Shown in pieces: positions 1-13,245 of a stretch of DNA of 51,721 nt. This stretch comes from an uncultured Alphaproteobacteria bacterium (GTDB lineage Bacteria; Pseudomonadota; Alphaproteobacteria; HIMB59; GCA-002718135): assembly GCA_902518985.1 (NCBI GenBank), contig CABYIF010000004.1, positions 1-51,721 of the forward strand, read 5' to 3'. How positions within the stretch are numbered: position 1 is the stretch's first letter; each line of letters starts with the position of its first letter. The position numbers and the translations under genes were made by a program. Below the pieces are notes generated by a model. The model did no database searches. It was not told where the DNA came from and saw only the letters and a list, made by a program, of their open reading frames with translations.

Positions 1-602
1 GTGACAAAGGTTTTTACGCAAGAGATGAATTAAATACTCTCAATAAGTTTGATTCACATTTTATTGGTCATCCAACTAGAAAGGTCAAAGGAATAGAACA
101 TAATACAGGTGCTTTAGGTCACGGATTATCAGTAGCAGTAGGAATGGCAATAGGTCTAAAGCTAGATGAAAAACCACATAAAGTATTTACTCTTTTAGGT
201 GATGGTGAGCTCAGTGAAGGCTCAATATGGGAAGGATTAATGTCAGCTAATAAATACCAATTAGATAATTTAATTATTATTATTGATAGAAATAGACTTC
301 AAATTACTGGAAAGACTGAAGATGTAAATCCTACAGAACCACTAAAAGAAAAATTTTTGTCATTTGGTATGTCTGTTCGAGAAGTTGATGGAAATTCTGT
401 TGAACAATTACAAGATATTTTTAGAAAAATACCTTTTGAAGAAAAAAAACCAAATCTTATTATTGCTAATACTGTTAAAGGAAAAGGTATAAGTTTTATT
501 GAAAACCAAGTTATATGGCATCATAAGGTTCCTACCAAAAATGAATTTCAAGCCGCTCAAAAAGAATTAGATAATGAAAAATTAAGTTTAGAAAATGATT
601 GA
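1..602 (+). CDS. aptA: Transketolase N-terminal (ThDP-binding) subunit, 5' truncated by window edge; probable apulose-4-phosphate transketolase subunit A
   Basis: Frame is open from base 3 (DKGFY...GHPTRKVKGIEHNTGALGHGLSVAVG) into the ORF; GDGELSEG...NRLQ ThDP motif; sits next to the C-terminal subunit, an FGGY kinase and an ApsI-like isomerase. Confidence 0.8.
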   Translation, partial: DKGFYARDELNTLNKFDSHFIGHPTRKVKGIEHNTGALGHGLSVAVGMAIGLKLDEKPHKVFTLLGDGELSEGSIWEGLMSANKYQLDNLIIIIDRNRLQITGKTEDVNPTEPLKEKFLSFGMSVREVDGNSVEQLQDIFRKIPFEEKKPNLIIANTVKGKGISFIENQVIWHHKVPTKNEFQAAQKELDNEKLSLEND

Positions 603-1527
603 AAAAGCTAACTTAGAAATATTTGCAGAAACTTTACTTGATCTAGCAAGAAATGATAAAGATATCATTGTTGTTACAAGTGATTCTAGGGGATCAGGTA
701 AATTAACAAACTTTGGAAAAGAACTTCCAGATCAAATTATTGAAGTTGGAATTGCTGAACAAAATTTAGTTGCAATTTGTGCAGGTCTATCAGCTGTTGG
801 AAAAAAAGTATTTGGAGTATCTCCTTCTAGTTTTTTGACTGCAAGAGCTTTAGAACAAATTAAAAATGACATTGCTTACTCTAATCATCCTGTTACACTT
901 GTTGGGATTAGTTCTGGTGTTAGCTACGGTCAACTTGGATCTACACACCACTCCATTCATGACATTGCTGTATTGAGAGCAATTAACAATTTAAATATTG
1001 TTATCCCTTGTGATAATTTTGAAACAAAAAAAACAATTCAATCGGCAGTAAATTTTGATGAACCATTATTTATAAGATTTGGAAAAAAACCAATGTTAAA
1101 AATACATAATGATAATCAATTATTTAAAATAGGCAAGGGTATCAGAATTAAAGAGGGTAAAGATATAGTGTTTATTGCAACGGGCGAGACTGTTCAAAGA
1201 GCATATCAGGCAATAGAAATACTTCAAAAAGATAATTTTGATTGCACACTAATTAGTATGCACACTATTAGACCTTTTGATGAGAGTCTTTTTTTAGAGT
1301 CTATAAAACATACCAAAGGTATTATAGCAATAGAAGAACATAGTGAAAGTGGAGGTTTGGGAGAAAAATGTGCAAGTATTTTAGCTCAAAAAAAAATAAT
1401 GACGAACTTCAAAATTATTGGTTTTCCAGATGAATATATGGTCAATGGTTCACAAAGTGATGTTCTTGATCATTATAATATGGCGCCTAAAAAATTAGCA
1501 GAAATTGCAAAGAAACTAATAAGTTAA
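595..1527 (+). CDS. aptB: Transketolase C-terminal subunit; probable apulose-4-phosphate transketolase subunit B
   Basis: EVGIAEQN, RALEQIKND and GSTHHS motifs; overlaps the upstream subunit. Confidence 0.8.
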   Translation: MIEKANLEIFAETLLDLARNDKDIIVVTSDSRGSGKLTNFGKELPDQIIEVGIAEQNLVAICAGLSAVGKKVFGVSPSSFLTARALEQIKNDIAYSNHPVTLVGISSGVSYGQLGSTHHSIHDIAVLRAINNLNIVIPCDNFETKKTIQSAVNFDEPLFIRFGKKPMLKIHNDNQLFKIGKGIRIKEGKDIVFIATGETVQRAYQAIEILQKDNFDCTLISMHTIRPFDESLFLESIKHTKGIIAIEEHSESGGLGEKCASILAQKKIMTNFKIIGFPDEYMVNGSQSDVLDHYNMAPKKLAEIAKKLIS

Positions 1528-2993
1528 TGTATTTATCACTTGATCAAAGTACTTCATCTACCACGATTTTTTTATATAATAAAAAATTTAAACTTTTAAC
1601 TAAGCTTTCTAAATCACATAAACAGATTCAAAAATCCAGAGGTTATGTAGAGCATGATGCTAATGAAATAATGAAAAATATATTTTTTTTAGTAAAAAAA
1701 ATTTCTAAAAAAATTAAATATAATAAGGATTTATTTTTAAGCATTACTAACCAAAGGGAAACCTTTGTAATATTTGACAAAAAATCAGGTAAACCTCTCC
1801 ATAATGCAATTGTTTGGCAATGTAGAAGAGGTCAAAAAGTTTGTGATAAAATAAATAAATCAATAAAAAACAAAAATTTAATAAAGAAAAAAACAGGTCT
1901 TACTTTAGACACTTATTTTCCTGCTTCAAAATTAATAGAATTATTAAATTCAAATAAAAAAATTAAAGAAAAATTAAAAAATGGCTCAGCTTTATTTGGA
2001 ACAATTGATACCTTCCTCATTTATCAGTTAACCAATCTAAAAAAATATTCAACTGACTTTACAAATGCGTCCAGAACTCTTTTTTTTGATAATGGGTCAC
2101 TGGTTTGGAGTAAAGAACTTTTAAAATTATTTAAATTAAACTTAGAAAGTCTTCCAGAGGTGAGAGAAAGCTCATCAATATTTGGATACACAAATTTTAA
2201 TGGGATATTAAATAAGAATATTCCTATTTCAGGAGTAATAGGAGATTCACAAGCTTCAATTTTTGCAAATCAATGTTTTAATAAGGGCAATACTAAAATT
2301 ACTTTAGGTACAGGTGCCTCCATCTTAACAAATATAGGCCAGTCATTTGAACATAATAATAATATTATCACTACACTTTCTTATGTTTACAGAAATAAAC
2401 CATTATATTCTTATGAGTGTCTAATTAACTATGCTGGAGCTACAATAAGTTGGCTTAAAAATAATTTAAAAATTATAAGTAATGAGAAAGAGACTAATCA
2501 AGTATTTGTTAATACTAAAAATACTGAAGGTTTAGTTTTTGTTCCAGCTTTTGTTGGTTTGAGCTCTCCTCATTGGAAGCCTAATAGTAAGGCATTGATA
2601 TATGGATTAACACCTTCTATTAACAAGAATCATATAATAAGAGCAGCTCTTGAGTCTATAGCATTTCAAATTAAAGATTATCTAGATGATTTAGAGGTTA
2701 ACAATAAAATAAAATATAATGATATTTTTATTGATGGAGGTATAGTTTCTAATACTTCATTTATTCAGTTCTTAACTAATACTTTAAATAAAAAAATATA
2801 TGTAACTAATTATCAAGATATGTCTTCCTATGGAGCATTAATGATGGGTTTATTAGGTATGAAAATTAAAAAAAATTTCAAAGAAATGGCAGCACTAAAA
2901 CAAAAATATTTAGTTTATACTCCATCAAAAAATAATTCAGCAAACAAAAGTTATGAAAAGTGGAAACTAGTTTTAAAAAAATTTTATTTTTAA
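1527..2993 (+). CDS. aplK: FGGY (glycerol kinase-like) carbohydrate kinase; probable D-apulose kinase
   Basis: DQSTSST, ITNQRET, IVWQCRR, NASRT, GDSQA, RAALESIAFQ; start overlaps the aptB stop; substrate inferred from context. Confidence 0.7.
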   Translation: MYLSLDQSTSSTTIFLYNKKFKLLTKLSKSHKQIQKSRGYVEHDANEIMKNIFFLVKKISKKIKYNKDLFLSITNQRETFVIFDKKSGKPLHNAIVWQCRRGQKVCDKINKSIKNKNLIKKKTGLTLDTYFPASKLIELLNSNKKIKEKLKNGSALFGTIDTFLIYQLTNLKKYSTDFTNASRTLFFDNGSLVWSKELLKLFKLNLESLPEVRESSSIFGYTNFNGILNKNIPISGVIGDSQASIFANQCFNKGNTKITLGTGASILTNIGQSFEHNNNIITTLSYVYRNKPLYSYECLINYAGATISWLKNNLKIISNEKETNQVFVNTKNTEGLVFVPAFVGLSSPHWKPNSKALIYGLTPSINKNHIIRAALESIAFQIKDYLDDLEVNNKIKYNDIFIDGGIVSNTSFIQFLTNTLNKKIYVTNYQDMSSYGALMMGLLGMKIKKNFKEMAALKQKYLVYTPSKNNSANKSYEKWKLVLKKFYF

Positions 2994-2996
2994 AAT

Positions 2997-3974
2997 CTAT
3001 AAAAATTTATAAAGTGATTTCTGTGCAATTTTTAATGCAGTCATTGCATCATGATTAGATTGAGCTTCTTCAAGCGCTTTCATATCTAAATCATCCAAAG
3101 CCTTTTCTATTGATTTTAAGAAGTCAATTGCCTGATTAGCCATCTGTACACTATCTTCTCTAAATGGAAACTGATCAAGTTGCCAAACACCTTCCCAATT
3201 ATTCTTTTTTAAAACATAAAAAAATTCAAATATTTCTATAGGATGCAAGCTACCAGCAATTAGATCGTCATCCCAAGATCTGTAATTGTCATTAACATCC
3301 ATTCCAAATAAGCGACCATAATCTATAGCTAATTGAGCAGAGTCAGCAGCTGACTCACCGCCATAAATGGCATGTCCAAAATCAAGCAATATCCCAATAT
3401 TTGGAAGTCCAATTTTTTCTATACCTAATAAAGTTCTAGAAACAGAGTCATAACTCATTTTAACTCTAGGCTCACGTGGCTTATATTCGATTACAAATTT
3501 TAGATCTGGATTTTCACTTGCTAGTCTTGCAACTCCATCCATTGAATTTTTCCATAATGTTCTGTGATCGACTTGAAAAGGATAATCCCATCCATCTTGA
3601 CCTGGCCACAACTTAACATAAGCTGCATTAAAAAACCGCACGGCATCACAAGCCTGTGTAATAAGTTCATGAGCTCTATTACGAACGCCAGGGTCAGGAT
3701 TTGTAAAAGCCCCTTTTCTAAATTCTTTAGTATAAATCTCTGGAGTAATTCCAATAACTTCTAAATTAACTTTATCTAGCTCATCCTTTATTTCTTGATT
3801 TGAAAAGGAGCCACCAAAATAAGGAAAATTAATATCTACAACTGAGAGATCCTTAACCTGACCTGCTAATTTAATAGCATCCAAGACACTTCTAGGTTCG
3901 CCGTAGCCTTCAGTATTATATCTATCAACGTATGTAGCAAAATGCCAAATACCCGCTCCAAATTTCTGAGTCAT
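2997..3974 (-). CDS. apsI: Xylose-isomerase-like TIM barrel; probable D-apiose isomerase
   Basis: [62 protein letters not shown] match the ApsI family as I recall it; context agrees. Confidence 0.8.
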
Positions 3975-4192: not shown

Positions 4193-5101
4193 ATGAAAAA
4201 ACTTCTTATGACAGTTGTAGCAATCGTATTTGCTACAAGTGCAGCCTTTGCTGAAAGATACGTTATGGTAACTCACGGTGAAGGTAAAGATCCTTTCTGG
4301 CCAGTTGTGCAAAAGGGTGGTGAAGATGCAGCTAGAGCAATCGGTGCTGATTTCGAATACATCTACAACCCTTCAGCTGATATGGCAGATATGGCAAGTT
4401 CAATTCAAGCTGCTGCTGCGACTCAGCCAGACGGTATGGTAATTTCACTACCTGATCCAGATGCGTTAGGCCCTGCAATTAAAGCTGCTGTTGCCGCTGG
4501 TGTACCAGTTGTAACTATGAACTCAGGTCTTGAAAACTCAGCTGCTTTAGGTGCTTTAATGCACGTTGGTCAGCCTGAGTATCTTGCTGGTCAAAAAGCT
4601 GGTGCTAGAGCTGCTTCTGAAGGAGCTACTAAAGCACTATGTATGATTCAAGAAGCATACAATACTGCTCTTGTTGATAGATGTGAAGGTTATGGAGAAG
4701 CTGTTCCAATGGAATTTACAGATACTACTTCTGACCCAGCAACTATCGTAACTCGTGCAACTGCTGCTTTACAAGCTAACCCAGACGTTGATGCAGTTCT
4801 ATCAGTAGGACCTCACGTTTGTGAAGGTGTTGCAAAAGCAATGGATGATCTTGGTATGAGTGGTATTCACCACGCATGTTTCGATTTAAGCCCAGGTGTT
4901 ATGGACTTAATCGGAGCTGGTAAAGTTTCATTTACTATTGACCAACAACAAAGACTACAAGGCTATATGCCAATTATAGTTCTACACTTATACAATAACA
5001 GTGCAGGATTATTACCAGGTGCAAATATTCCATCTGGACCAGGATTTGTTGATAAGTCTAATGCTGCTTCAGTTTCAGCGTTAGCTGGTATCGATAGATA
5101 A
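4193..5101 (+). CDS. Sugar/polyol ABC transporter periplasmic binding protein (CUT2, RbsB-like fold)
   Basis: Signal peptide ending AAFA, VTHGEGKDPFW, TIDQQQRLQGY; strong SD AGGAGG at 4180-4185; biased codon use (GCT, GGT, AAC, TTC) suggesting high expression. Confidence 0.92.
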   Translation: MKKLLMTVVAIVFATSAAFAERYVMVTHGEGKDPFWPVVQKGGEDAARAIGADFEYIYNPSADMADMASSIQAAAATQPDGMVISLPDPDALGPAIKAAVAAGVPVVTMNSGLENSAALGALMHVGQPEYLAGQKAGARAASEGATKALCMIQEAYNTALVDRCEGYGEAVPMEFTDTTSDPATIVTRATAALQANPDVDAVLSVGPHVCEGVAKAMDDLGMSGIHHACFDLSPGVMDLIGAGKVSFTIDQQQRLQGYMPIIVLHLYNNSAGLLPGANIPSGPGFVDKSNAASVSALAGIDR

Positions 5102-5112
5102 CAATTAATTTT

Positions 5113-5138
5113 AAGCCGCCTTCGGGCGGCTTTTTTTT
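5113..5138 (+). terminator. Intrinsic terminator between binding protein and permease
   Basis: AAGCCGCC-TTCG-GGCGGC followed by T8. Confidence 0.9.
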
Positions 5139-5146
5139 ACAATATT

Positions 5147-6739
5147 ATGAATTCTAACGCACAACCTCAAAGAAAAGAATCAGATAGGCTAAAACCTAAA
5201 AGATGGTACTCAGCATTTTTTGCAAGACCAGAAGTTGGACCTTTGGGTGTTATGCTTTTACTTTTTGCAATGCTAGGTTATTTTTCAATCCCGCAAGGAG
5301 AGTTTTCATTAAATCCATTTGCTGGTGAAGGTTTTAATGCACTTGGAATTAGGAATAACTTTAGGGTTATTTCACAGTTAGGTATTGTTGCACTTGGAGC
5401 TGGTATGCTCATTATAGCAGGTGAATTTGATCTTAGTGTTGGTTCAATGATTGGTTTTGCTGGAGGAGCAATGGCGATGATACTTAAATGGGGATTTGCT
5501 GTTGTTATACCTTACATATCATTTGAAGGCAGTTTTCATTTAGAAGGTATAAAATTATTTGAAATAACAAATGTTTCTCCCTTAACAGCGCTTTTAATTA
5601 CTTTAGTAATGACTCTTTCTTTTGGATGGTTTCAAGGCTTTATAATAGTTAAAAGCGGAATCGCTTCTTTTATTGTTACCTTAGGAGGTTTATTTTTCCT
5701 AAGAGGTCTTACAGAAGTTACATATCGAGCCTTTAATAAAAAACCTGATCAAACAGCTGGGTCTACAACAGTGACCGATCTTCCAGATATAAAAAATATC
5801 ATCAATGTTCCTGGTCATGGAGAAATGGAAAGGGATGCTGCAAAAGCTTTGTCAAATGAAGAACTATTAGAAATTTTAAAAACAGCTCCAGAAAAAACAA
5901 TTAATAAACTTACAGAACAACTAACATACATTAACGAAAAAGTTGCGGTTACTAAAACACTTTTACAAAAACAAAAGATGGTAGATACAATGCAAAATAC
6001 TTTAGATAACGCTATAAAGTCAGGAAACGAATCAATGGTTGAAGCAATTCAGAAAAAAATTGATGCAGGTATTCAAGTACCAGAAATAGCAGCTAAAGCA
6101 GTAACAGATTTAGATTTAGCTAGAGAGTATTTAGATTCTTTTATCACTGCAAGACCAGTGGCTAATTTCTTTGGTGGAGATATTATGGAACCTTTCTTTG
6201 ATTGGTTATACTTTACCGCCGATTGGAATGTAAATATGTTTGGTAACAAGTTTGCACCTGGACTTTATTCTTGTGTGATGATTTGGGTGTTATTAGCAAT
6301 AATATGTTATTTTGTATTAAGTAAAACTCAAGTAGGTAACTGGATCTATTCCACAGGTGGTAACTTATCTGCTGCACAAGCAAATGGTGTGCCAACCAAT
6401 AAAGTTAAAATAGGACTGTTTATGTTTACTGCTTTTTGTGCAACAATGTTTGCAGCGTGTCAGGTATTCGAAGTCAATACAGCTGATACAGCTAAAGGAA
6501 ATCTAAAAGAATTAGAAGCTATCGCAGCAGCAGTAATTGGAGGAGTTGTTTTAACTGGGGGGTTTGGAACTATTTTAGGAATCATGTTAGGTGCTGTTAT
6601 TTTTGGAATTGCAAAGGAAGCTTTCTTTTATATACCTGGTGTTGATGGATCATTTTATAGAGTATTCTTAGGCGCAGTATTAGTTGTTGCAGCACTTACA
6701 AATGAAAATATAAGAAAAAGAATAATGGGAAGTATTTGA
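5147..6739 (+). CDS. Sugar ABC transporter permease (BPD_transp_2/RbsC family) with a large soluble insertion
   Basis: GEFDLSVGS, ASFIVTLG, GGNLSAAQANGV, ELEAIAAAVIGG; 530 aa. Confidence 0.92.
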   Translation: MNSNAQPQRKESDRLKPKRWYSAFFARPEVGPLGVMLLLFAMLGYFSIPQGEFSLNPFAGEGFNALGIRNNFRVISQLGIVALGAGMLIIAGEFDLSVGSMIGFAGGAMAMILKWGFAVVIPYISFEGSFHLEGIKLFEITNVSPLTALLITLVMTLSFGWFQGFIIVKSGIASFIVTLGGLFFLRGLTEVTYRAFNKKPDQTAGSTTVTDLPDIKNIINVPGHGEMERDAAKALSNEELLEILKTAPEKTINKLTEQLTYINEKVAVTKTLLQKQKMVDTMQNTLDNAIKSGNESMVEAIQKKIDAGIQVPEIAAKAVTDLDLAREYLDSFITARPVANFFGGDIMEPFFDWLYFTADWNVNMFGNKFAPGLYSCVMIWVLLAIICYFVLSKTQVGNWIYSTGGNLSAAQANGVPTNKVKIGLFMFTAFCATMFAACQVFEVNTADTAKGNLKELEAIAAAVIGGVVLTGGFGTILGIMLGAVIFGIAKEAFFYIPGVDGSFYRVFLGAVLVVAALTNENIRKRIMGSI

Positions 6740-7521
6740 TGGATAAAAAGCCTTTAATTGAAATCAAAGATCTAGTTAAAAAATTTGGAAGCTTTACTGC
6801 TCTAAATGGAGTCTCTTTAGACGTATTCCCAGGAGAAGTTCATGCCTTGCTCGGTGATAATGGTGCCGGTAAGTCAACATTAATAAAAGTTTTATCTGGA
6901 GTTCATACTGCTACAAATGGTGAAATAAAGGTTGATGGAGAGATAGTAAAGTTTGCTTCACCAAGACAAGCATCTGATGCCGGAATCGGAACAGTTTATC
7001 AGGATCTCGCTTTAAATAATTTAACATCTGTTACATTAAATTTTTTCTTAGGTAGAGAATTAAAAAAAGGACCTGGTCCTTTTGGTCTTATGCAAATGGA
7101 CGAAATGCATAAGATAACTATTGAAGAAATGTCTAAGATTGGAATTAATATTGCTGATCCAAATCAAAAGGTTGGAACAATGTCTGGAGGTCAAAGGCAA
7201 ACTTTAGCAATTGCACGTGCAATTTATTTTGGGGCAAAAATATTAATCCTTGATGAGCCAACTTCAGCTCTTGGTCAAAAACAACAAATGGAAGTTCTAA
7301 AAACAATTAAAAAGGTTCAACGACTAGGTAATATTGCCATTATTCTTATCACACATAACGAAATTCATGCACGACTTATTGCAGACCGTTATACCTTCTT
7401 AAGTTTGGGTGAAGTTATTGGAAATGGTTTAGCGAGTGAGCTTGGTGGAGAAGATGTAAAAAGATTAATGGCAGGTGGCGCAGAAATAGGCGACCTTGCA
7501 AAGGAGTTAGATCTAAAATAG
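6739..7521 (+). CDS. Sugar ABC transporter ATP-binding protein (single domain)
   Basis: GDNGAGKST Walker A, MSGGQRQ signature, ILDEPT Walker B; ATG at 6739 overlaps the permease TGA. Confidence 0.93.
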   Translation: MDKKPLIEIKDLVKKFGSFTALNGVSLDVFPGEVHALLGDNGAGKSTLIKVLSGVHTATNGEIKVDGEIVKFASPRQASDAGIGTVYQDLALNNLTSVTLNFFLGRELKKGPGPFGLMQMDEMHKITIEEMSKIGINIADPNQKVGTMSGGQRQTLAIARAIYFGAKILILDEPTSALGQKQQMEVLKTIKKVQRLGNIAIILITHNEIHARLIADRYTFLSLGEVIGNGLASELGGEDVKRLMAGGAEIGDLAKELDLK

Positions 7522-7566: not shown

Positions 7567-8415
7567 ATGTTATTAGCTAAGAATGACGATTATAATAAAC
7601 AAGACGTTCTAAATGAACTTTTAAAAGGTAGTGGTGTCGTTGTAATTAAAGATGTTTATAGTTCTGAAGATATTGAAATAACAAGAAATATTATTAATGA
7701 ATTTGCTTCTACACAAGAGCAAAAAGAATCTCATTTTAATGCTGAAGCAGAAGCCTCAGGTAAAATTCACTTACAGCAAAGAGTATGGAACCTTTTTGGA
7801 AAGGGAGCGATTTTTGGAAAACTAATCTCTAGCGATGTTATATTTGATATAATGTCTTCTTTTTTAGGAAATGAATTTACTTGCGGATCTTATTGCGCAA
7901 GTAGATTGATGCCAGGAGCACCTGGTCAGGAATTACACATAGATTATCCTTATTGGGATTATTATAAAAAAGATACATTTCCAATGGGATTGAATAGTTC
8001 TTTCCCTCAAAATTGTCAGGCCACAATTCCCTTAGATGTTTGCTCTGAATTATCAGGTGCAACCGCTTATGTTCCAGGATCTCAAAAAAAACTTCATTAT
8101 CCTAATGATAAAGATGATTTTTCTGATCAAAAACAAATGACAGCAAATCCTGGTGATTTAGTTTTATTTAATGGTAACTGTTGGCATGGTGCATCACCAA
8201 ATAATTCTGATCATCAAAGAGCTGTTTTGCTAATAGAATTTCTTCCTAAATATATTAAACCAGTAGAGGATCTTGTAACTTATCTTGATGATAATTTTAA
8301 AAAAAACTGTCCTGATAGAGTCAAACAACTTTTAGGATTAAATTATAAATATCCAAAAATCATGGATGTAAGTAAGACTGTAAATGATATTGGATTAGGC
8401 TATAAAGCCAAATAA
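7567..8415 (+). CDS. PhyH-family 2-oxoglutarate/Fe(II) dioxygenase
   Basis: HID (HxD) motif, GATAYVPGS, distal WHGA and downstream Arg. Confidence 0.85.
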   Translation: MLLAKNDDYNKQDVLNELLKGSGVVVIKDVYSSEDIEITRNIINEFASTQEQKESHFNAEAEASGKIHLQQRVWNLFGKGAIFGKLISSDVIFDIMSSFLGNEFTCGSYCASRLMPGAPGQELHIDYPYWDYYKKDTFPMGLNSSFPQNCQATIPLDVCSELSGATAYVPGSQKKLHYPNDKDDFSDQKQMTANPGDLVLFNGNCWHGASPNNSDHQRAVLLIEFLPKYIKPVEDLVTYLDDNFKKNCPDRVKQLLGLNYKYPKIMDVSKTVNDIGLGYKAK

Positions 8416-8421
8416 ATTTCT

Positions 8422-9567
8422 ATGAAAAATATTGGTGTAATTGGATGCGGTAATATTCTTGAAACTTATTTGAGATCTCAAGAATATTTTAATAATATCA
8501 ATTTTGTGTCATGTTCAGATATTAATATGGAGTTAGCTAAAAAGACTGCTTCAGAAAATAATCTAAAAGCGCAAACAGTTGAAGAATTATTAAGTGATAA
8601 TTCAATAGATATAGTTTTAAACATTACAATTCCTCAAGCTCATTTTGAAGTATCCAAAAAAATATTAGAAGCAGGAAAGCATGTCTATTCAGAAAAACCC
8701 ATGAGCGTCAAATATGATCAAGCAAAAGAATTGCTTGAAATTTCTAATAGAAAAAATTTATATTTTGGTAATGCCCCAGATACTTTTCTTGGAGGTGGCG
8801 GTCAATTATCTAGAGAAATTATTGACTCAAATGAACTAGGAGAAATACTAACTGGTAACTTTATTTTTGCCTTTCCAGGCGTTCAAGATTTTCATCCAAA
8901 TCCTGAGTCTTGGTTCCAAGATGGTGGAGGGCCTTTAATTGATATGGGTCCTTATTTTTTTACAACACTTGTTAACCTATTAGGACCTGCTAAAAATATT
9001 AGAAGCAGAGGAGTTAAGTTTTCTAATAAAAGAGAATATAAAGCAGGACCAAAAAAAGGAAAATATTTTAATGTTGATATTCCTACTTCGTATATGTTTA
9101 ATTTAGAATTCCAGAATAAATCAATTATACAAGGTTTTATTTCTTTTGATGTTTTAAATCACAAAAGAAATCACGTTGAACTTTATGGCACAAAAGGATC
9201 AATCATTGTGCCTGACCCAAATATGTTTGGTGGTCCTGTAATGACATCTGGCCAGTTAGGTTCAGATTGGCTAGAACATAGTGTTGAATCTAAGCCTTTA
9301 GGTAAAACAAATATATTTAATAAAACTGTTAGAAGTAATGAGGCACCAAAGCAGTCTAATTACAGAGGTGTTGGATTGTCTGAAATGGTTGACTCCATTG
9401 AAAATCAAAGACAACAAAGATGCAATGGAGAACTTGCCTTACATGTTCTTGATATTATTGAAAGTGCCATGGTAGCTGCAAATGATAAAACAGAAGTAAA
9501 TATGAGATCAACTTGTAAAAAACCTCAGCCATTTAATGATAAAGAAATTATAAATTTGTTGAAATAA
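8422..9567 (+). CDS. Gfo/Idh/MocA family NAD(P)-dependent oxidoreductase
   Basis: GVIGCGNI, GKHVYSEKP, GGPLIDMGPY. Confidence 0.9.
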   Translation: MKNIGVIGCGNILETYLRSQEYFNNINFVSCSDINMELAKKTASENNLKAQTVEELLSDNSIDIVLNITIPQAHFEVSKKILEAGKHVYSEKPMSVKYDQAKELLEISNRKNLYFGNAPDTFLGGGGQLSREIIDSNELGEILTGNFIFAFPGVQDFHPNPESWFQDGGGPLIDMGPYFFTTLVNLLGPAKNIRSRGVKFSNKREYKAGPKKGKYFNVDIPTSYMFNLEFQNKSIIQGFISFDVLNHKRNHVELYGTKGSIIVPDPNMFGGPVMTSGQLGSDWLEHSVESKPLGKTNIFNKTVRSNEAPKQSNYRGVGLSEMVDSIENQRQQRCNGELALHVLDIIESAMVAANDKTEVNMRSTCKKPQPFNDKEIINLLK

Positions 9568-9622
9568 ATTTTTATATTATTATATTTTAGTCAATTAATT
9601 TAATAAGAAAATACTTTATATT

Positions 9623-10603
9623 ATGAAAGTTGATTTAAATAAGTGGTATAGACCTGAGGTAAACAAAGAAGAATTTAAAAAACTTTGTGAAAAATCTGAT
9701 TGGCAAGGTTTCAAACATGTTGTTATTTATTTTAGCACTCTCTTTTTTGTCGGATATCTAGCATATTATACATATGGCACATGGTGGAGCTTAATATTCT
9801 TTCTTATATATGCTAACATTTATGCGTGTAGTGATTCCATATGGCATGAGACAGGTCATCAAACAGCTTTTAAGTCAAAATTCTGGAATAACTTTTTTTA
9901 CCAAATTGCAAGTTATATGGATAATTTTGAACCAGTTAGATGGAAGTGGTCGCACTTTAAGCATCATACTCAAACAGCATATGATGAGCCTCATGATTTT
10001 GAAATTGCCATAAGAAAGCCAACTGACTTATTTTTGTTTTTTTCATATTTTATTCCATTTTCTCAAATGATAACTTTTCATAAAACTTTACAATTTGAAA
10101 CTATTAAACATGCTATAGGTATAACTACACCAGTTATGAAGCATGCTATTCCTGAAAAGGAAAGATATAAATGTAGACGGTCTGCAAGAATACACGTTAG
10201 TATATGGTTAATAGTTATTGTTAGTTCTATTTACTTTCAATCTTGGCTACCTGTTTTATATTTAGTTCTTCCTGGATTTTATGGAAAAACACTTGTAGCT
10301 TGCTTTGGATTAACACAACATACGGGGCTGCAAGAAAATATTAAAGATCATAGATACAGCACAAGAACGGTTTATCTTAATCCAATATTTAGTTTTTTAT
10401 ATTGGCATATGGAATATCATATTGAACATCATATGTTTCCAACTGTACCTTCTTATAACCTACCAAAACTACATGAGATGATAAAGGATAAGATGCCACC
10501 GGCTAAAAGAGGATTATTAGGAGCTTATAAAGAAATTTTACCGGCCATTTTTAAACAAGCTAGAAATCCAGATTATCAGATTAAATTAAGTGTTCCTAGT
10601 TAA
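9623..10603 (+). CDS. mocD: Membrane di-iron oxygenase of the fatty-acid-desaturase fold, MocD-like
   Basis: His boxes WHETGH, WSHFKHH and YHIEHH; YHIEHHMFPTVPSYNLPKLHE and WHETGHQTAF resemble rhizopine-catabolism MocD. Confidence 0.72.
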   Translation: MKVDLNKWYRPEVNKEEFKKLCEKSDWQGFKHVVIYFSTLFFVGYLAYYTYGTWWSLIFFLIYANIYACSDSIWHETGHQTAFKSKFWNNFFYQIASYMDNFEPVRWKWSHFKHHTQTAYDEPHDFEIAIRKPTDLFLFFSYFIPFSQMITFHKTLQFETIKHAIGITTPVMKHAIPEKERYKCRRSARIHVSIWLIVIVSSIYFQSWLPVLYLVLPGFYGKTLVACFGLTQHTGLQENIKDHRYSTRTVYLNPIFSFLYWHMEYHIEHHMFPTVPSYNLPKLHEMIKDKMPPAKRGLLGAYKEILPAIFKQARNPDYQIKLSVPS

Positions 10604-11426
10604 TTTTTTCAGCTAACTCTAGAAATTTATCAAATTCATTATCTTCTATTTGAACCGTTATTTTAGGATCATTAAAATTTTTGTTTATTGTGTCCTCATG
10701 AAATTCTCTAAAAGCTCTCACTCTCTCATTTTGTAATCTTTGATATTCTTTTCTAAAATTTCTGTAAACCCTAGCATGTCTAGGTATATGGCCATCATTC
10801 CATCCTAAAACATCATTTGAAAATAAAAACTGTGCATCACAATCTGAGCCACTTCCCATTGACATTGTAATTATTTCAACCTTTTTTGTAATAACCTCTG
10901 CAACTTTTGGAGGAACAACCTCAAGCTCAACACCAATTACCCCAGCCTCTTGTAATTCTAGAGTATTTTTTAAAACCCCTACTGCTTCAACTGCAGTTTT
11001 ACCAATTGCTCGAAGACCGCCAATCCATGTAGATTTTCCAGGAACTAGACCAACATGACCTATTGTTGGAATATTTTCTTGGCGCATTGCCTTGATCCAT
11101 TTTAAACTATAATTTCCGACATAGATGCAATCTACTCCAAAAGATAAATAATTATGTGCATATTTAATAGCTTCGTATTCAGAAGCAGGTGGATAGGGAC
11201 CAGATGATTGCATAAAGCAATTTGGCGCTACTTCACGTATTTTTTTTACATCATCTAAAGTAGCATTAATACCAAATCTTGGCAGGTCATGAGCAGCAAC
11301 AATATAATCAATACCTGCTTCTTCTGCAGCTGCACCTTCTTCAATAGTATGAACAAATAGATTACTTAGTTGTCTCTTACCCTTTGATTTTAAATAATCA
11401 TAAACGGTTAATTTTTTTCTCAACAA
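10596..11426 (-). CDS. Divergent PanB (ketopantoate hydroxymethyltransferase)-like protein
   Basis: Keeps GHVGLVP, LQEAG..GVELEVVP and SMGSGSDCDAQFL..DVLG; lacks LVGDS, DMPF and KLEG. Confidence 0.8.
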   Translation of the reverse strand: MLRKKLTVYDYLKSKGKRQLSNLFVHTIEEGAAAEEAGIDYIVAAHDLPRFGINATLDDVKKIREVAPNCFMQSSGPYPPASEYEAIKYAHNYLSFGVDCIYVGNYSLKWIKAMRQENIPTIGHVGLVPGKSTWIGGLRAIGKTAVEAVGVLKNTLELQEAGVIGVELEVVPPKVAEVITKKVEIITMSMGSGSDCDAQFLFSNDVLGWNDGHIPRHARVYRNFRKEYQRLQNERVRAFREFHEDTINKNFNDPKITVQIEDNEFDKFLELAEKIN

Positions 11427-11931: not shown

Positions 11932-13245
11932 ATGCAAGATTATTTTAAGAATATACCTGAAATACAATTCGAAGGGGAAGATAGTAACAACCCATTAGCT
12001 TTTAAATTCTATGATGAGAACAAAAATATTTTAGGAAAATCGATGAAAGAACATTTCCGCTTTGCAACTTGTTATTGGCATACTTTTACTTGGCCAGGAT
12101 TGGACCCCTTTGGCGGACAAACGTTTGAAAGACCATGGATGAAAAGTGGCGATTCAATGAAAATGGCAGAGGAAAAACTTAATTGTGCCTTTGATTTCTT
12201 TACTAAAATAAAGACACCATTTTTCTGTTTCCACGATAGAGATATTGCTCCAGAAGGGTCAAACTACAAGGAAACACAAAAAAATTTCATGTACATTGTT
12301 GATTTAATGGAGAAGAAGATTGAAGAAACAAAAATGAAATTATTATGGGGTACTGCTAATGCCTTTTCACATAAAAGATATATGAGTGGAGCTTCAACGA
12401 ATCCAGATCCAGAAGTATTTGCCTACAAAGCAGCACAAGTTAAAGATTGCATGGACGCAACATTAAGACTTGGTGGACAAAACTATGTTTTGTGGGGTGG
12501 CAGAGAAGGTTATGAAACAATATTAAACACTAACATGTCTAAGGAAATGGATAATTTGAAAAGATTTCTTGAATTAGTAGTTAATTATAAACATAAAATT
12601 GGATTTAAGGGTCAAATTTTAATTGAACCTAAGCCACACGAACCAACAAAACATCAGTATGATTTTGACTCTGCAGCATGTCTTGCTTTTATTAGAAAAG
12701 CTGGACTTGAAGGAGAAATTAAACTTAATATAGAAGCAAATCATGCGACTCTATCTGGACATAACTATGAACATGAAATAGCATACGCAATTGCAAATAA
12801 TGCATTGGGAAGTTTAGATATTAATAGAGGTGATACATTAATTGGTTGGGATACAGACCAGTTTCCAAATAATCCAGCTGATTTAATTATGGCCTTTTAC
12901 TTTATATTCAGTAATGGAGGACTTGGTAATGGAGGATTAAATTTCGATGCTAAGATTAGAAGGCAATCTATTGATCCGGAGGATTTGTTTTACGCACATA
13001 TTGGTGGAATGGATGTTTGTGCTAAAACATTAATTGCTGTTGAAAAATTAATTAAAGATAATGTTATTCCAAAATTCATAGAAGATCGATATTCTGATTG
13101 GGATAGTGAATTAGGCAAATTTATACATAATAAAGATGCATCATTAGACTCTATCCATAAAAGAGTTATCGATAGTAATATTGAACCAAAAACACGATCT
13201 GGAAGACAAGAATATTTGGAAAATATTATAAACAAATATTTATAG
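11932..13245 (+). CDS. xylA: Xylose isomerase (class II)
   Basis: YWHTF, FHDRD, WGGREGY, EPKPHEP, NIEANHA, WDTDQF, NFDAK. Confidence 0.96.
   Translation: MQDYFKNIPEIQFEGEDSNNPLAFKFYDENKNILGKSMKEHFRFATCYWHTFTWPGLDPFGGQTFERPWMKSGDSMKMAEEKLNCAFDFFTKIKTPFFCFHDRDIAPEGSNYKETQKNFMYIVDLMEKKIEETKMKLLWGTANAFSHKRYMSGASTNPDPEVFAYKAAQVKDCMDATLRLGGQNYVLWGGREGYETILNTNMSKEMDNLKRFLELVVNYKHKIGFKGQILIEPKPHEPTKHQYDFDSAACLAFIRKAGLEGEIKLNIEANHATLSGHNYEHEIAYAIANNALGSLDINRGDTLIGWDTDQFPNNPADLIMAFYFIFSNGGLGNGGLNFDAKIRRQSIDPEDLFYAHIGGMDVCAKTLIAVEKLIKDNVIPKFIEDRYSDWDSELGKFIHNKDASLDSIHKRVIDSNIEPKTRSGRQEYLENIINKYL

Follow-up and report, generated by a model that had tools for sequence, protein, structure and literature searches.

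Apiose is a branched sugar familiar chiefly as a component of plant cell walls, and its non-oxidative (transketolase) breakdown was reportedly defined by Carter et al. in 2018 as the D-apiose pathway ApsI-AplK-AptAB (MetaCyc PWY-8089). Four apiose routes are described, one of them running via transketolase (PMC13753588). In Escherichia coli ST131/ST14, a cluster represented by SE15 ECSF_RS02670-02715 holds genes named aplK, aptA and aptB, and cluster-positive strains grew on apiose, which E. coli K-12 fails to do (PMC13001218); a coastal roseobacter uses the sugar by an oxidative route (PMC11747546). Here we analyzed a stretch of 51,721 nucleotides (the window) at the start of contig C4 (CABYIF010000004.1) in the draft genome of an uncultured alphaproteobacterium (1.18 Mb, 29% GC, 70% complete), whose first 3,974 nucleotides hold a four-gene cluster that we read from sequence comparison, with a probability of about 0.75, as this non-oxidative D-apiose pathway. 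The pathway is already known and the host is new. Our literature searches returned no paper on the non-oxidative apiose pathway in SAR11 or in HIMB59, the order to which we assign the host (the supplements of PMC10308909 could list such genes), and the word apiose is absent from the main texts of PMC10308909 and PMC10734472 and from eight supplementary files of the latter, one of them covered in part.

The cluster begins with aptA (3..602, forward strand; Pfam Transketolase_N), the N-terminal, thiamine diphosphate (ThDP)-binding subunit of a split transketolase, followed by aptB for its C-terminal subunit (595..1527, forward; Transket_pyr and Transketolase_C) and by a GlpK-derived FGGY kinase (1527..2993, forward; DQST/GDS motifs), which NCBIfam scores, pocket residues, trees and gene neighbourhoods together mark as a predicted apulose kinase. 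Neighbouring reading frames overlap by 8 nt (aptA/aptB) and 1 nt (aptB/kinase). On the reverse strand, an apsI-like sugar isomerase of the xylose-isomerase-type TIM barrel fold (2997..3974) converges on the kinase with stop codons 3 nt apart, so that gene coordinates and Pfam domains both bear out the preliminary description of an isomerase converging on an FGGY kinase and a split transketolase. That description had also called the gene set complete. All four genes lie where it placed them and in the orientation it gave, but the contig starts inside aptA, which covers residues 79-277 of the 277-residue full-length form and is 81% identical to the full-length AptA of a related locus (L003), aligning from residue 79. 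Neither the first 78 residues nor the transporter found upstream of aptA in relatives is on any contig of the 70%-complete draft; the gene set is therefore real, and its completeness is not shown.

Compared with the described ApsI-AplK-AptAB pathway, the locus shares the four-gene content, the split transketolase and a GlpK-derived kinase with serines at the positions of GlpK residues 246 and 270, and part of its relatives share a DUF2291-containing transporter. It differs in that the host belongs to an oligotrophic marine lineage, the isomerase converges on the other three genes, the kinase is of another subfamily, and marine copies are usually flanked by fructose-type and inositol-type transporters. 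We saw no regulator next to the cluster, either in the window or in close relatives. In E. coli SE15 the kinase has the same pocket changes, and the solute-binding protein (SBP), permease and ATPase of its cluster (40%, 54% and 49% identity in L005), along with DUF2291, have homologs in some relatives of our genome, but the SE15 cluster has two short-chain dehydrogenases/reductases (SDRs) and no apsI.

The transketolase halves compare closely with those of E. coli. AptA of SE15 and the window's aptA product are mutual best matches (47% identity over 190 aa), as are the two AptB proteins (34%); a second split transketolase pair in the same draft, on contig C20, scores lower against SE15 AptA and AptB (30% and 28%), and a one-chain transketolase-like open reading frame (ORF) on C12 also ranks behind. 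The aptA fragment carries the ThDP motif GDG..E at its residue 66, and the best Protein Data Bank (PDB) match of aptB is 6YAJ, the C chain of a split transketolase. These reciprocal matches place the two-chain transketolase as a probable ortholog of AptA/AptB and, with the identity of the isomerase, favour the apsI-aplK-aptAB assignment made in the preliminary description.

The best solved relative of the isomerase is 3KTC, a putative sugar isomerase of Pectobacterium atrosepticum SCRI1043 (E 4.5e-132, against 3.9e-18 for the runner-up), with 60% identity and a TM score of 0.85 to our structural model (pLDDT 83). We take 3KTC to be the enzyme later named ApsI. Identity to xylose and L-rhamnose isomerases is 18-22% (18-20% for the L-rhamnose isomerases alone), and within the same genome it is 25% to XylA, 23% to a rhamnose-type isomerase and 35% to a paralog on C20, whereas cluster copies from rhizobia and actinobacteria are 76-82% identical. 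No NCBIfam model, those for XylA and L-rhamnose isomerase included, matched at 1e-20. The predicted metal-binding set comprises E163, K165, D198, H201, D226, D235, D237 and D267, and across 18 sequences the acidic and histidine residues that correspond to the metal motifs of XylA vary little or not at all. Since the isomerase tree has long outgroup branches, we let the pairwise identities carry the grouping: with 60% to 3KTC against 18-20% to L-rhamnose isomerases, the enzyme is best assigned to the ApsI (3KTC) group of PF01261 rather than to the rhamnose isomerases, the grouping that would have counted against the apiose proposal. A 3KTC-like isomerase that is 60% identical to the window's also adjoins pckA on a plasmid of Pantoea sp. 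At-9b (L207:9980-10972), with no kinase or transketolase nearby, and 3KTC-like isomerase genes occur in 10 Pantoea plasmid records.

The isomerase type and the dedicated transketolase both bear on one alternative, in which D-arabinose or a similar linear aldose would be isomerised to D-ribulose, phosphorylated and passed into the pentose phosphate pathway. D-ribulose 5-phosphate is no transketolase donor and requires no dedicated transketolase, which counts against this explanation. D-arabinose catabolism was predicted in 2013 for a similar isomerase-kinase-transketolase set in a Thermotoga ribose operon (PMC3750489), but that assignment is a prediction that predates the description of the apiose pathway, the window's isomerase is of the 3KTC type, and characterised D-ribulokinases come from the AraB branch and not from GlpK (PMC3245297). 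We consider a linear pentose quite improbable as the substrate.

The kinase lies outside GlpK by score, under both GlpK cut-offs (TIGR01311, 456.8 bits against 590.35; NF000756, 438.6 against 498), both of which a partial GlpK on contig C35 passes. The residues R83, E84, Y135, D245 and F270 form a GlpK signature that is identical across GlpK clusters (PMC3245297). With GlpK the kinase shares the fold, the ATP motifs and four of the five signature residues (R77, E78, Y130 and D240, matching R83, E84, Y135 and D245); it differs by S265 in place of F270, S241 in place of Q246, and a G12S change. Serine at both 246 and 270 was found in 14/14 kinases of E. coli, rhizobial and actinobacterial clusters and in 0/4 GlpKs. 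Identity to kinases of the E. coli/rhizobial group is 27-31%, and in quick trees the kinase groups apart, together with kinases whose records carry Chloroflexi and Planctomycetes names, while in an unrooted tree of 31 rows the eight GlpK-type rows split from all GDS kinases (SH-aLRT 99). Both kinase trees are quick and unrooted, with many rows of odd composition, and we claim no donor or order of events from them; the GlpK branch allows, without proving, one AplK family of two subfamilies. The naming of the kinase as AplK in the preliminary description thus holds in placing it outside GlpK, by score and by the loss of F270, but at 27% identity to E. coli AplK we assign it on sequence grounds to a second AplK-like subfamily rather than to an ortholog-level match of the E. 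coli/rhizobial enzyme.

Gene neighbourhoods of this subfamily follow the same division. Using an alignment of 17 non-marine members as query, we examined the best 80 of 592 metagenome loci, of which 76 carry the GDS motif and four the canonical GDQQ. Beside the 76 GDS kinases stand aptB in 69, aptA in 55, a gene of the fucose-isomerase family (PF02952) in 41, DUF2291 in 22 and an apsI-like gene in 5, all counts being lower bounds given that many metagenome contigs are short; the four GDQQ loci have none of aptB, aptA, the PF02952 gene, the apsI-like gene or DUF2291. One 756-aa record (P0087) fuses an AptB part, 50% identical to the window's AptB, to a kinase part (47%); as a single record that may be an error, we used it only as evidence of adjacency.

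These comparisons address the possibility that routine annotation is correct and that chance has placed side by side an additional glycerol kinase, a redundant transketolase and an isomerase acting on xylose or rhamnose. The best PDB and NCBIfam matches of the kinase are indeed glycerol kinases, and its relatives are labelled 'glycerol kinase' in their source records. Yet the kinase scores under the GlpK cut-offs and has lost a signature residue, separate counterparts exist elsewhere in the genome (the partial GlpK on C35, a XylA gene at 11932 and the rhamnose-type isomerase on C7, the isomerase being only 23-25% identical to the latter two), and the clustering is conserved across distant taxa, so that on sequence grounds this explanation is largely refuted and has very little probability left. 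Routine annotation would mislabel these genes glpK, tkt and xylose isomerase, and the marine version would escape the 40%-identity screen described in PMC13001218.

That conservation was assessed in the best 80 of 547 confirmed genome loci of the isomerase, 29 of them marine and 51 rhizobial or actinobacterial, with the 29 marine loci all from single-cell or metagenome-assembled alphaproteobacteria. Within 10 kb of the isomerase, aptA, aptB and the kinase occur together in 27 of the 29 marine loci, and the 51 non-marine loci have aptA in 41, aptB in 40, an E. coli-AplK-like kinase in 43 and a DUF2291 transporter in 28. Such conserved neighbourhoods on both sides indicate that the grouping is not chance.

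Under the apiose pathway reading, whose reactions and substrate we infer from the published pathway and general chemistry, the isomerase would convert imported D-apiose to apulose by a metal-dependent aldose-ketose isomerisation, and the kinase would phosphorylate one hydroxymethyl arm of apulose to give apulose 4-phosphate. AptAB would then cleave this product between C2 and C3 with ThDP, releasing dihydroxyacetone phosphate (DHAP) and transferring the glycolaldehyde (two-carbon ketol) unit to glyceraldehyde 3-phosphate to yield D-xylulose 5-phosphate; triose-phosphate isomerase, whose gene is present in the genome, would return DHAP to the acceptor, for a net conversion of apiose and ATP to xylulose 5-phosphate. 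Structurally, apulose can be viewed as glycerol carrying a glycoloyl substituent at C2, and this glycerol-like shape would explain why the kinase keeps four glycerol hydrogen-bonding residues and has lost the phenylalanine that packs against the carbon backbone of glycerol: the hydroxyl-binding residues would be kept and the hydrophobic face opened for apulose.

We assigned the host by ileS, which in the window is 84-92% identical to that of three single-cell genomes (L002, L004, L006). The record names of these genomes are listed under family GCA-002718135, order HIMB59, in the supplement of PMC10734472, and those of two genomes with another gene architecture (L012, L021) under family HIMB59; we looked up five record names there and all five were present. 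Based on this listing we take the window's own family to be GCA-002718135 within order HIMB59/AEGEAN-169, and the sister family of our genome set is probably family HIMB59. HIMB59/AEGEAN-169 bacteria are abundant, streamlined surface-ocean oligotrophs with expanded sugar use, described as sugar specialists (PMC10308909). DNA sequencing runs holding at least 0.28 of the window's words were labelled marine metagenome in 17 of 18 cases and came from nine studies in all; the best-matching run may be the source sample, and two of these runs aligned to the window covered all 30 bins. Draft size and GC content, ileS and the marine DNA runs thus agree with the earlier suggestion of a streamlined marine alphaproteobacterium. 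Among RNA runs, two matched 0.05 of the window's words, with contigs of low depth on a few short pieces of kinase and isomerase and over much of a neighbouring SBP gene, where one run (X20) had many contigs; RNA-library contigs show neither transcription nor its level, and we did not use them as evidence.

Of all 187 genomes in the order, 75 carry an aptB ortholog (15 of 115 others in the window's own family, 59 of 71 in the sister family), 69 the kinase and 44 the isomerase (14 of 115 others and 29 of 71), and aptB accompanies the isomerase in each of the 43 other isomerase-bearing genomes. Only in the sister family does the gene set come close to being core; in the window's own family it is accessory. 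A 467-aa gene of the fucose-isomerase family (PF02952; for example L191:7365-8765, reverse strand) occurs in 27 of the 187 genomes, none of them among the 115 and all among the 71. The 59 aptB-positive sister-family genomes divide into 29 with the TIM-barrel isomerase, 26 with the PF02952 type, none with both and 4 with neither, these last being 63-81% complete.

The PF02952 gene appears to replace the TIM-barrel enzyme in place. In nine fetched loci (L189, L191-L196, L202, L219; genomes G037, G039, G047, G046, G043, G051, G055, G146, G187), set against comparison loci L008-L030, it lies between aptA and the SBP gene, where other loci have the TIM-barrel gene, in seven, and 3' of the kinase in two. 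For instance, a locus of the fucose type (L193) and one of the TIM-barrel type (L012) are 95% identical over 9,955 bp on one side and 89% identical over 7,424 bp on the other, with no alignment across the isomerase gene. A tree of AptA, AptB and kinase from 21 loci (one of 22 was dropped, having no kinase) requires at least three changes of isomerase type; the genomes involved are related and mostly incomplete, and we treat this as a pattern rather than a statistical test. The one-for-one exchange in the same slot implies, as far as gene context can indicate, that both isomerase folds would yield the same ketose. Searches with the PF02952-type protein gave no PDB sequence match at E 0.001 and no NCBIfam match at 1e-30, and our literature searches found no paper characterising such an enzyme on apiose, though Carter et al. 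(2018) could include it. Metagenome loci that combine PF02952, aptAB and a DQST/GDS kinase share the window's kinase subfamily, with aptB 50-58% identical to the window's in many loci, compared with 37-43% for rhizobial clusters, and differ from the window, which has the TIM-barrel isomerase instead; some of them resemble Bacteroidetes susC/susD regions.

The best independent pointer to apiose comes from a transporter. We examined 14 of the 15 aptB-positive relatives in the window's own family (G013 was left out), and in seven an SBP/permease/ATPase/DUF2291 set adjoins aptA, seen directly in L199, L200, L201 and L213 and inferred in G082, G033 and G134 from DUF2291 about 5 kb from aptB. The cluster-flanking SBP of L005 is 58% identical to a Rhizobium etli protein, EFI-511357 (4RY0/5IBQ), and 5IBQ is presumably its apiose complex. 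A homolog of the L005 SBP (61%) stands with DUF2291 in a Rhizobium anhuiense operon that includes 3-oxo-isoapionate-4-phosphate decarboxylase OiaX (RefSeq name), an enzyme of the oxidative apiose route, so that the same transporter accompanies two apiose routes. DUF2291 was not found in the window's own 70%-complete draft, from which the upstream DNA is absent. Because so few genomes in the order have DUF2291, and no sister-family genome does, most carriers would import the substrate another way. No PF13204 (GH140) apiosidase was found in the 187 genomes (a control search was positive in 2/14), which predicts uptake of free apiose monomer set free by other organisms. Two loci (L007, L201) retain an intact isomerase and DUF2291 transporter, but a stop codon interrupts aptB and the kinase gene is broken in two, reflecting either pathway decay or single-cell sequencing error. 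A DUF2291 apiose-type transporter also lies at a contig end in a genome that is 85% complete (L216, G132:C23), and no aptB, kinase or isomerase ortholog was found in that genome.

Several observations weigh against apiose as the substrate. The kinase is closer to E. coli GlpK (34%) and to the genome's own GlpK (42%) than to AplK (27%), and the best match of E. coli AplK in the genome is GlpK and not the window's kinase; Y135 is kept, at a position occupied by L or M in the E. coli/rhizobial group; and sister-family kinases carry F135, A246 and N270 in the four of four examined, which also speaks against a uniform substrate. The other seven of the 14 own-family relatives, among them the closest by aptB identity (G129, G024), have an FrcB-like fructose-type set instead, DUF2291 is limited to 7 of the 187 genomes, with none among the 71 of the sister family, the title of 4RY0 names a ribose transporter SBP, and the SBP next to the cluster in the window looks inositol-like. 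An FrcB-like SBP also flanks the cluster in L002. In addition, neither Rpe nor transaldolase turned up in the 70%-complete draft, and literature searches turned up no paper on apiose in open-ocean dissolved organic matter.

These points would fit the same chemistry acting on another natural substrate, a branched sugar or polyol such as apiitol or a so far undescribed branched pentose of algal or bacterial origin, entering at apulose or an analogue, with apiose itself minor in the sea. The scarcity of the DUF2291 transporter, the placing of most marine copies among fructose-type and inositol-type transporters, the unlike kinase pockets of the two families and the lack of an apiosidase in the 187 genomes all favour it, as do six loci (L014, L015, L018, L019, L021, L217) that add an SDR pair (52-56% to E. 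coli) and its own ABC transporter beside an intact isomerase. Yet the isomerase is 76-82% identical to plant-associated rhizobial copies, arguing for a shared substrate, a kinase of the window's type stands directly beside the apiose-type transporter in 7/14 close relatives examined, and green algae, seagrass and some marine bacteria synthesise apiose too (PMC5607165). We regard a different substrate as unlikely, though distinctly less so than a linear pentose, and retain the apiose pathway reading. In L014, L015, L018, L019, L021, L158 and L217 and in rhizobial L063, L067 and L080, an intact apsI-like gene is adjoined by a pair of SDRs that match the two of E. coli SE15 at 52-64% identity and come with their own ABC transporter; standing beside an intact isomerase gene, these SDRs are suggested to bring in a second substrate, for example a polyol like apiitol, and not merely to replace the isomerase.

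A broader proposal, which we hold tentatively and at somewhat under even odds, is that apiose or an undescribed branched sugar of the same chemistry is a steady source of dissolved carbon in the open ocean, with the route kept by most sister-family genomes (59/71) and two unrelated isomerase folds exchanged at one position at least three times, which would assign apiose isomerase activity to an orphan fucose-isomerase-like family lacking a solved relative. That streamlined genomes retain a pathway for a sugar associated with vascular plants offers a concrete compound to seek in seawater, and its being common across the lineage would indicate an unmeasured seawater source of apiose or a look-alike sugar. 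Apiose is likewise a candidate addition to media for poorly growing isolates of the HIMB59 order, and the exchange of isomerases between loci that otherwise match amounts to a natural experiment, predicting a function for an uncharacterised PF02952 subfamily.

Beyond the cluster, the window continues with a sugar ABC transporter divergent from the isomerase (4193-7521, forward), whose SBP (4193-5101) best matches 4RU1 and, below cut-off, a rhizopine/inositol-type model; given these matches, we rejected this transporter as an unproven candidate for the apiose importer. The permease of this transporter, 530 aa in length, contains an extended insert at its centre, and in relatives the transporter adjoins what we take to be iolD/iolE/iolG-like genes. 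Downstream (7567-11426) lie genes for a PhyH-family dioxygenase, a Gfo/Idh/MocA oxidoreductase, a protein of the fatty-acid-desaturase family and a PanB-like protein (below cut-off), and contig C3 holds similar desaturase-like and PanB-like ORFs. The XylA gene (11932-13245, forward), a class II xylose isomerase passing TIGR02630, stands alone between a glyoxalase-family gene and ribF, and a xylulokinase-like gene lies on C32. A second sugar cluster on contig C20 (C20:9264-24053, L204) holds DeoC, BtpA/SgcQ, an M42 peptidase, an FGGY kinase, an ABC transporter and a ribokinase together with the second split transketolase and the 35% isomerase paralog, the latter found in 7/36 same-genus relatives; by eye, this cluster also includes a 786-aa aldehyde-dehydrogenase-like protein and a 150-aa RbsD/FucU-like protein.

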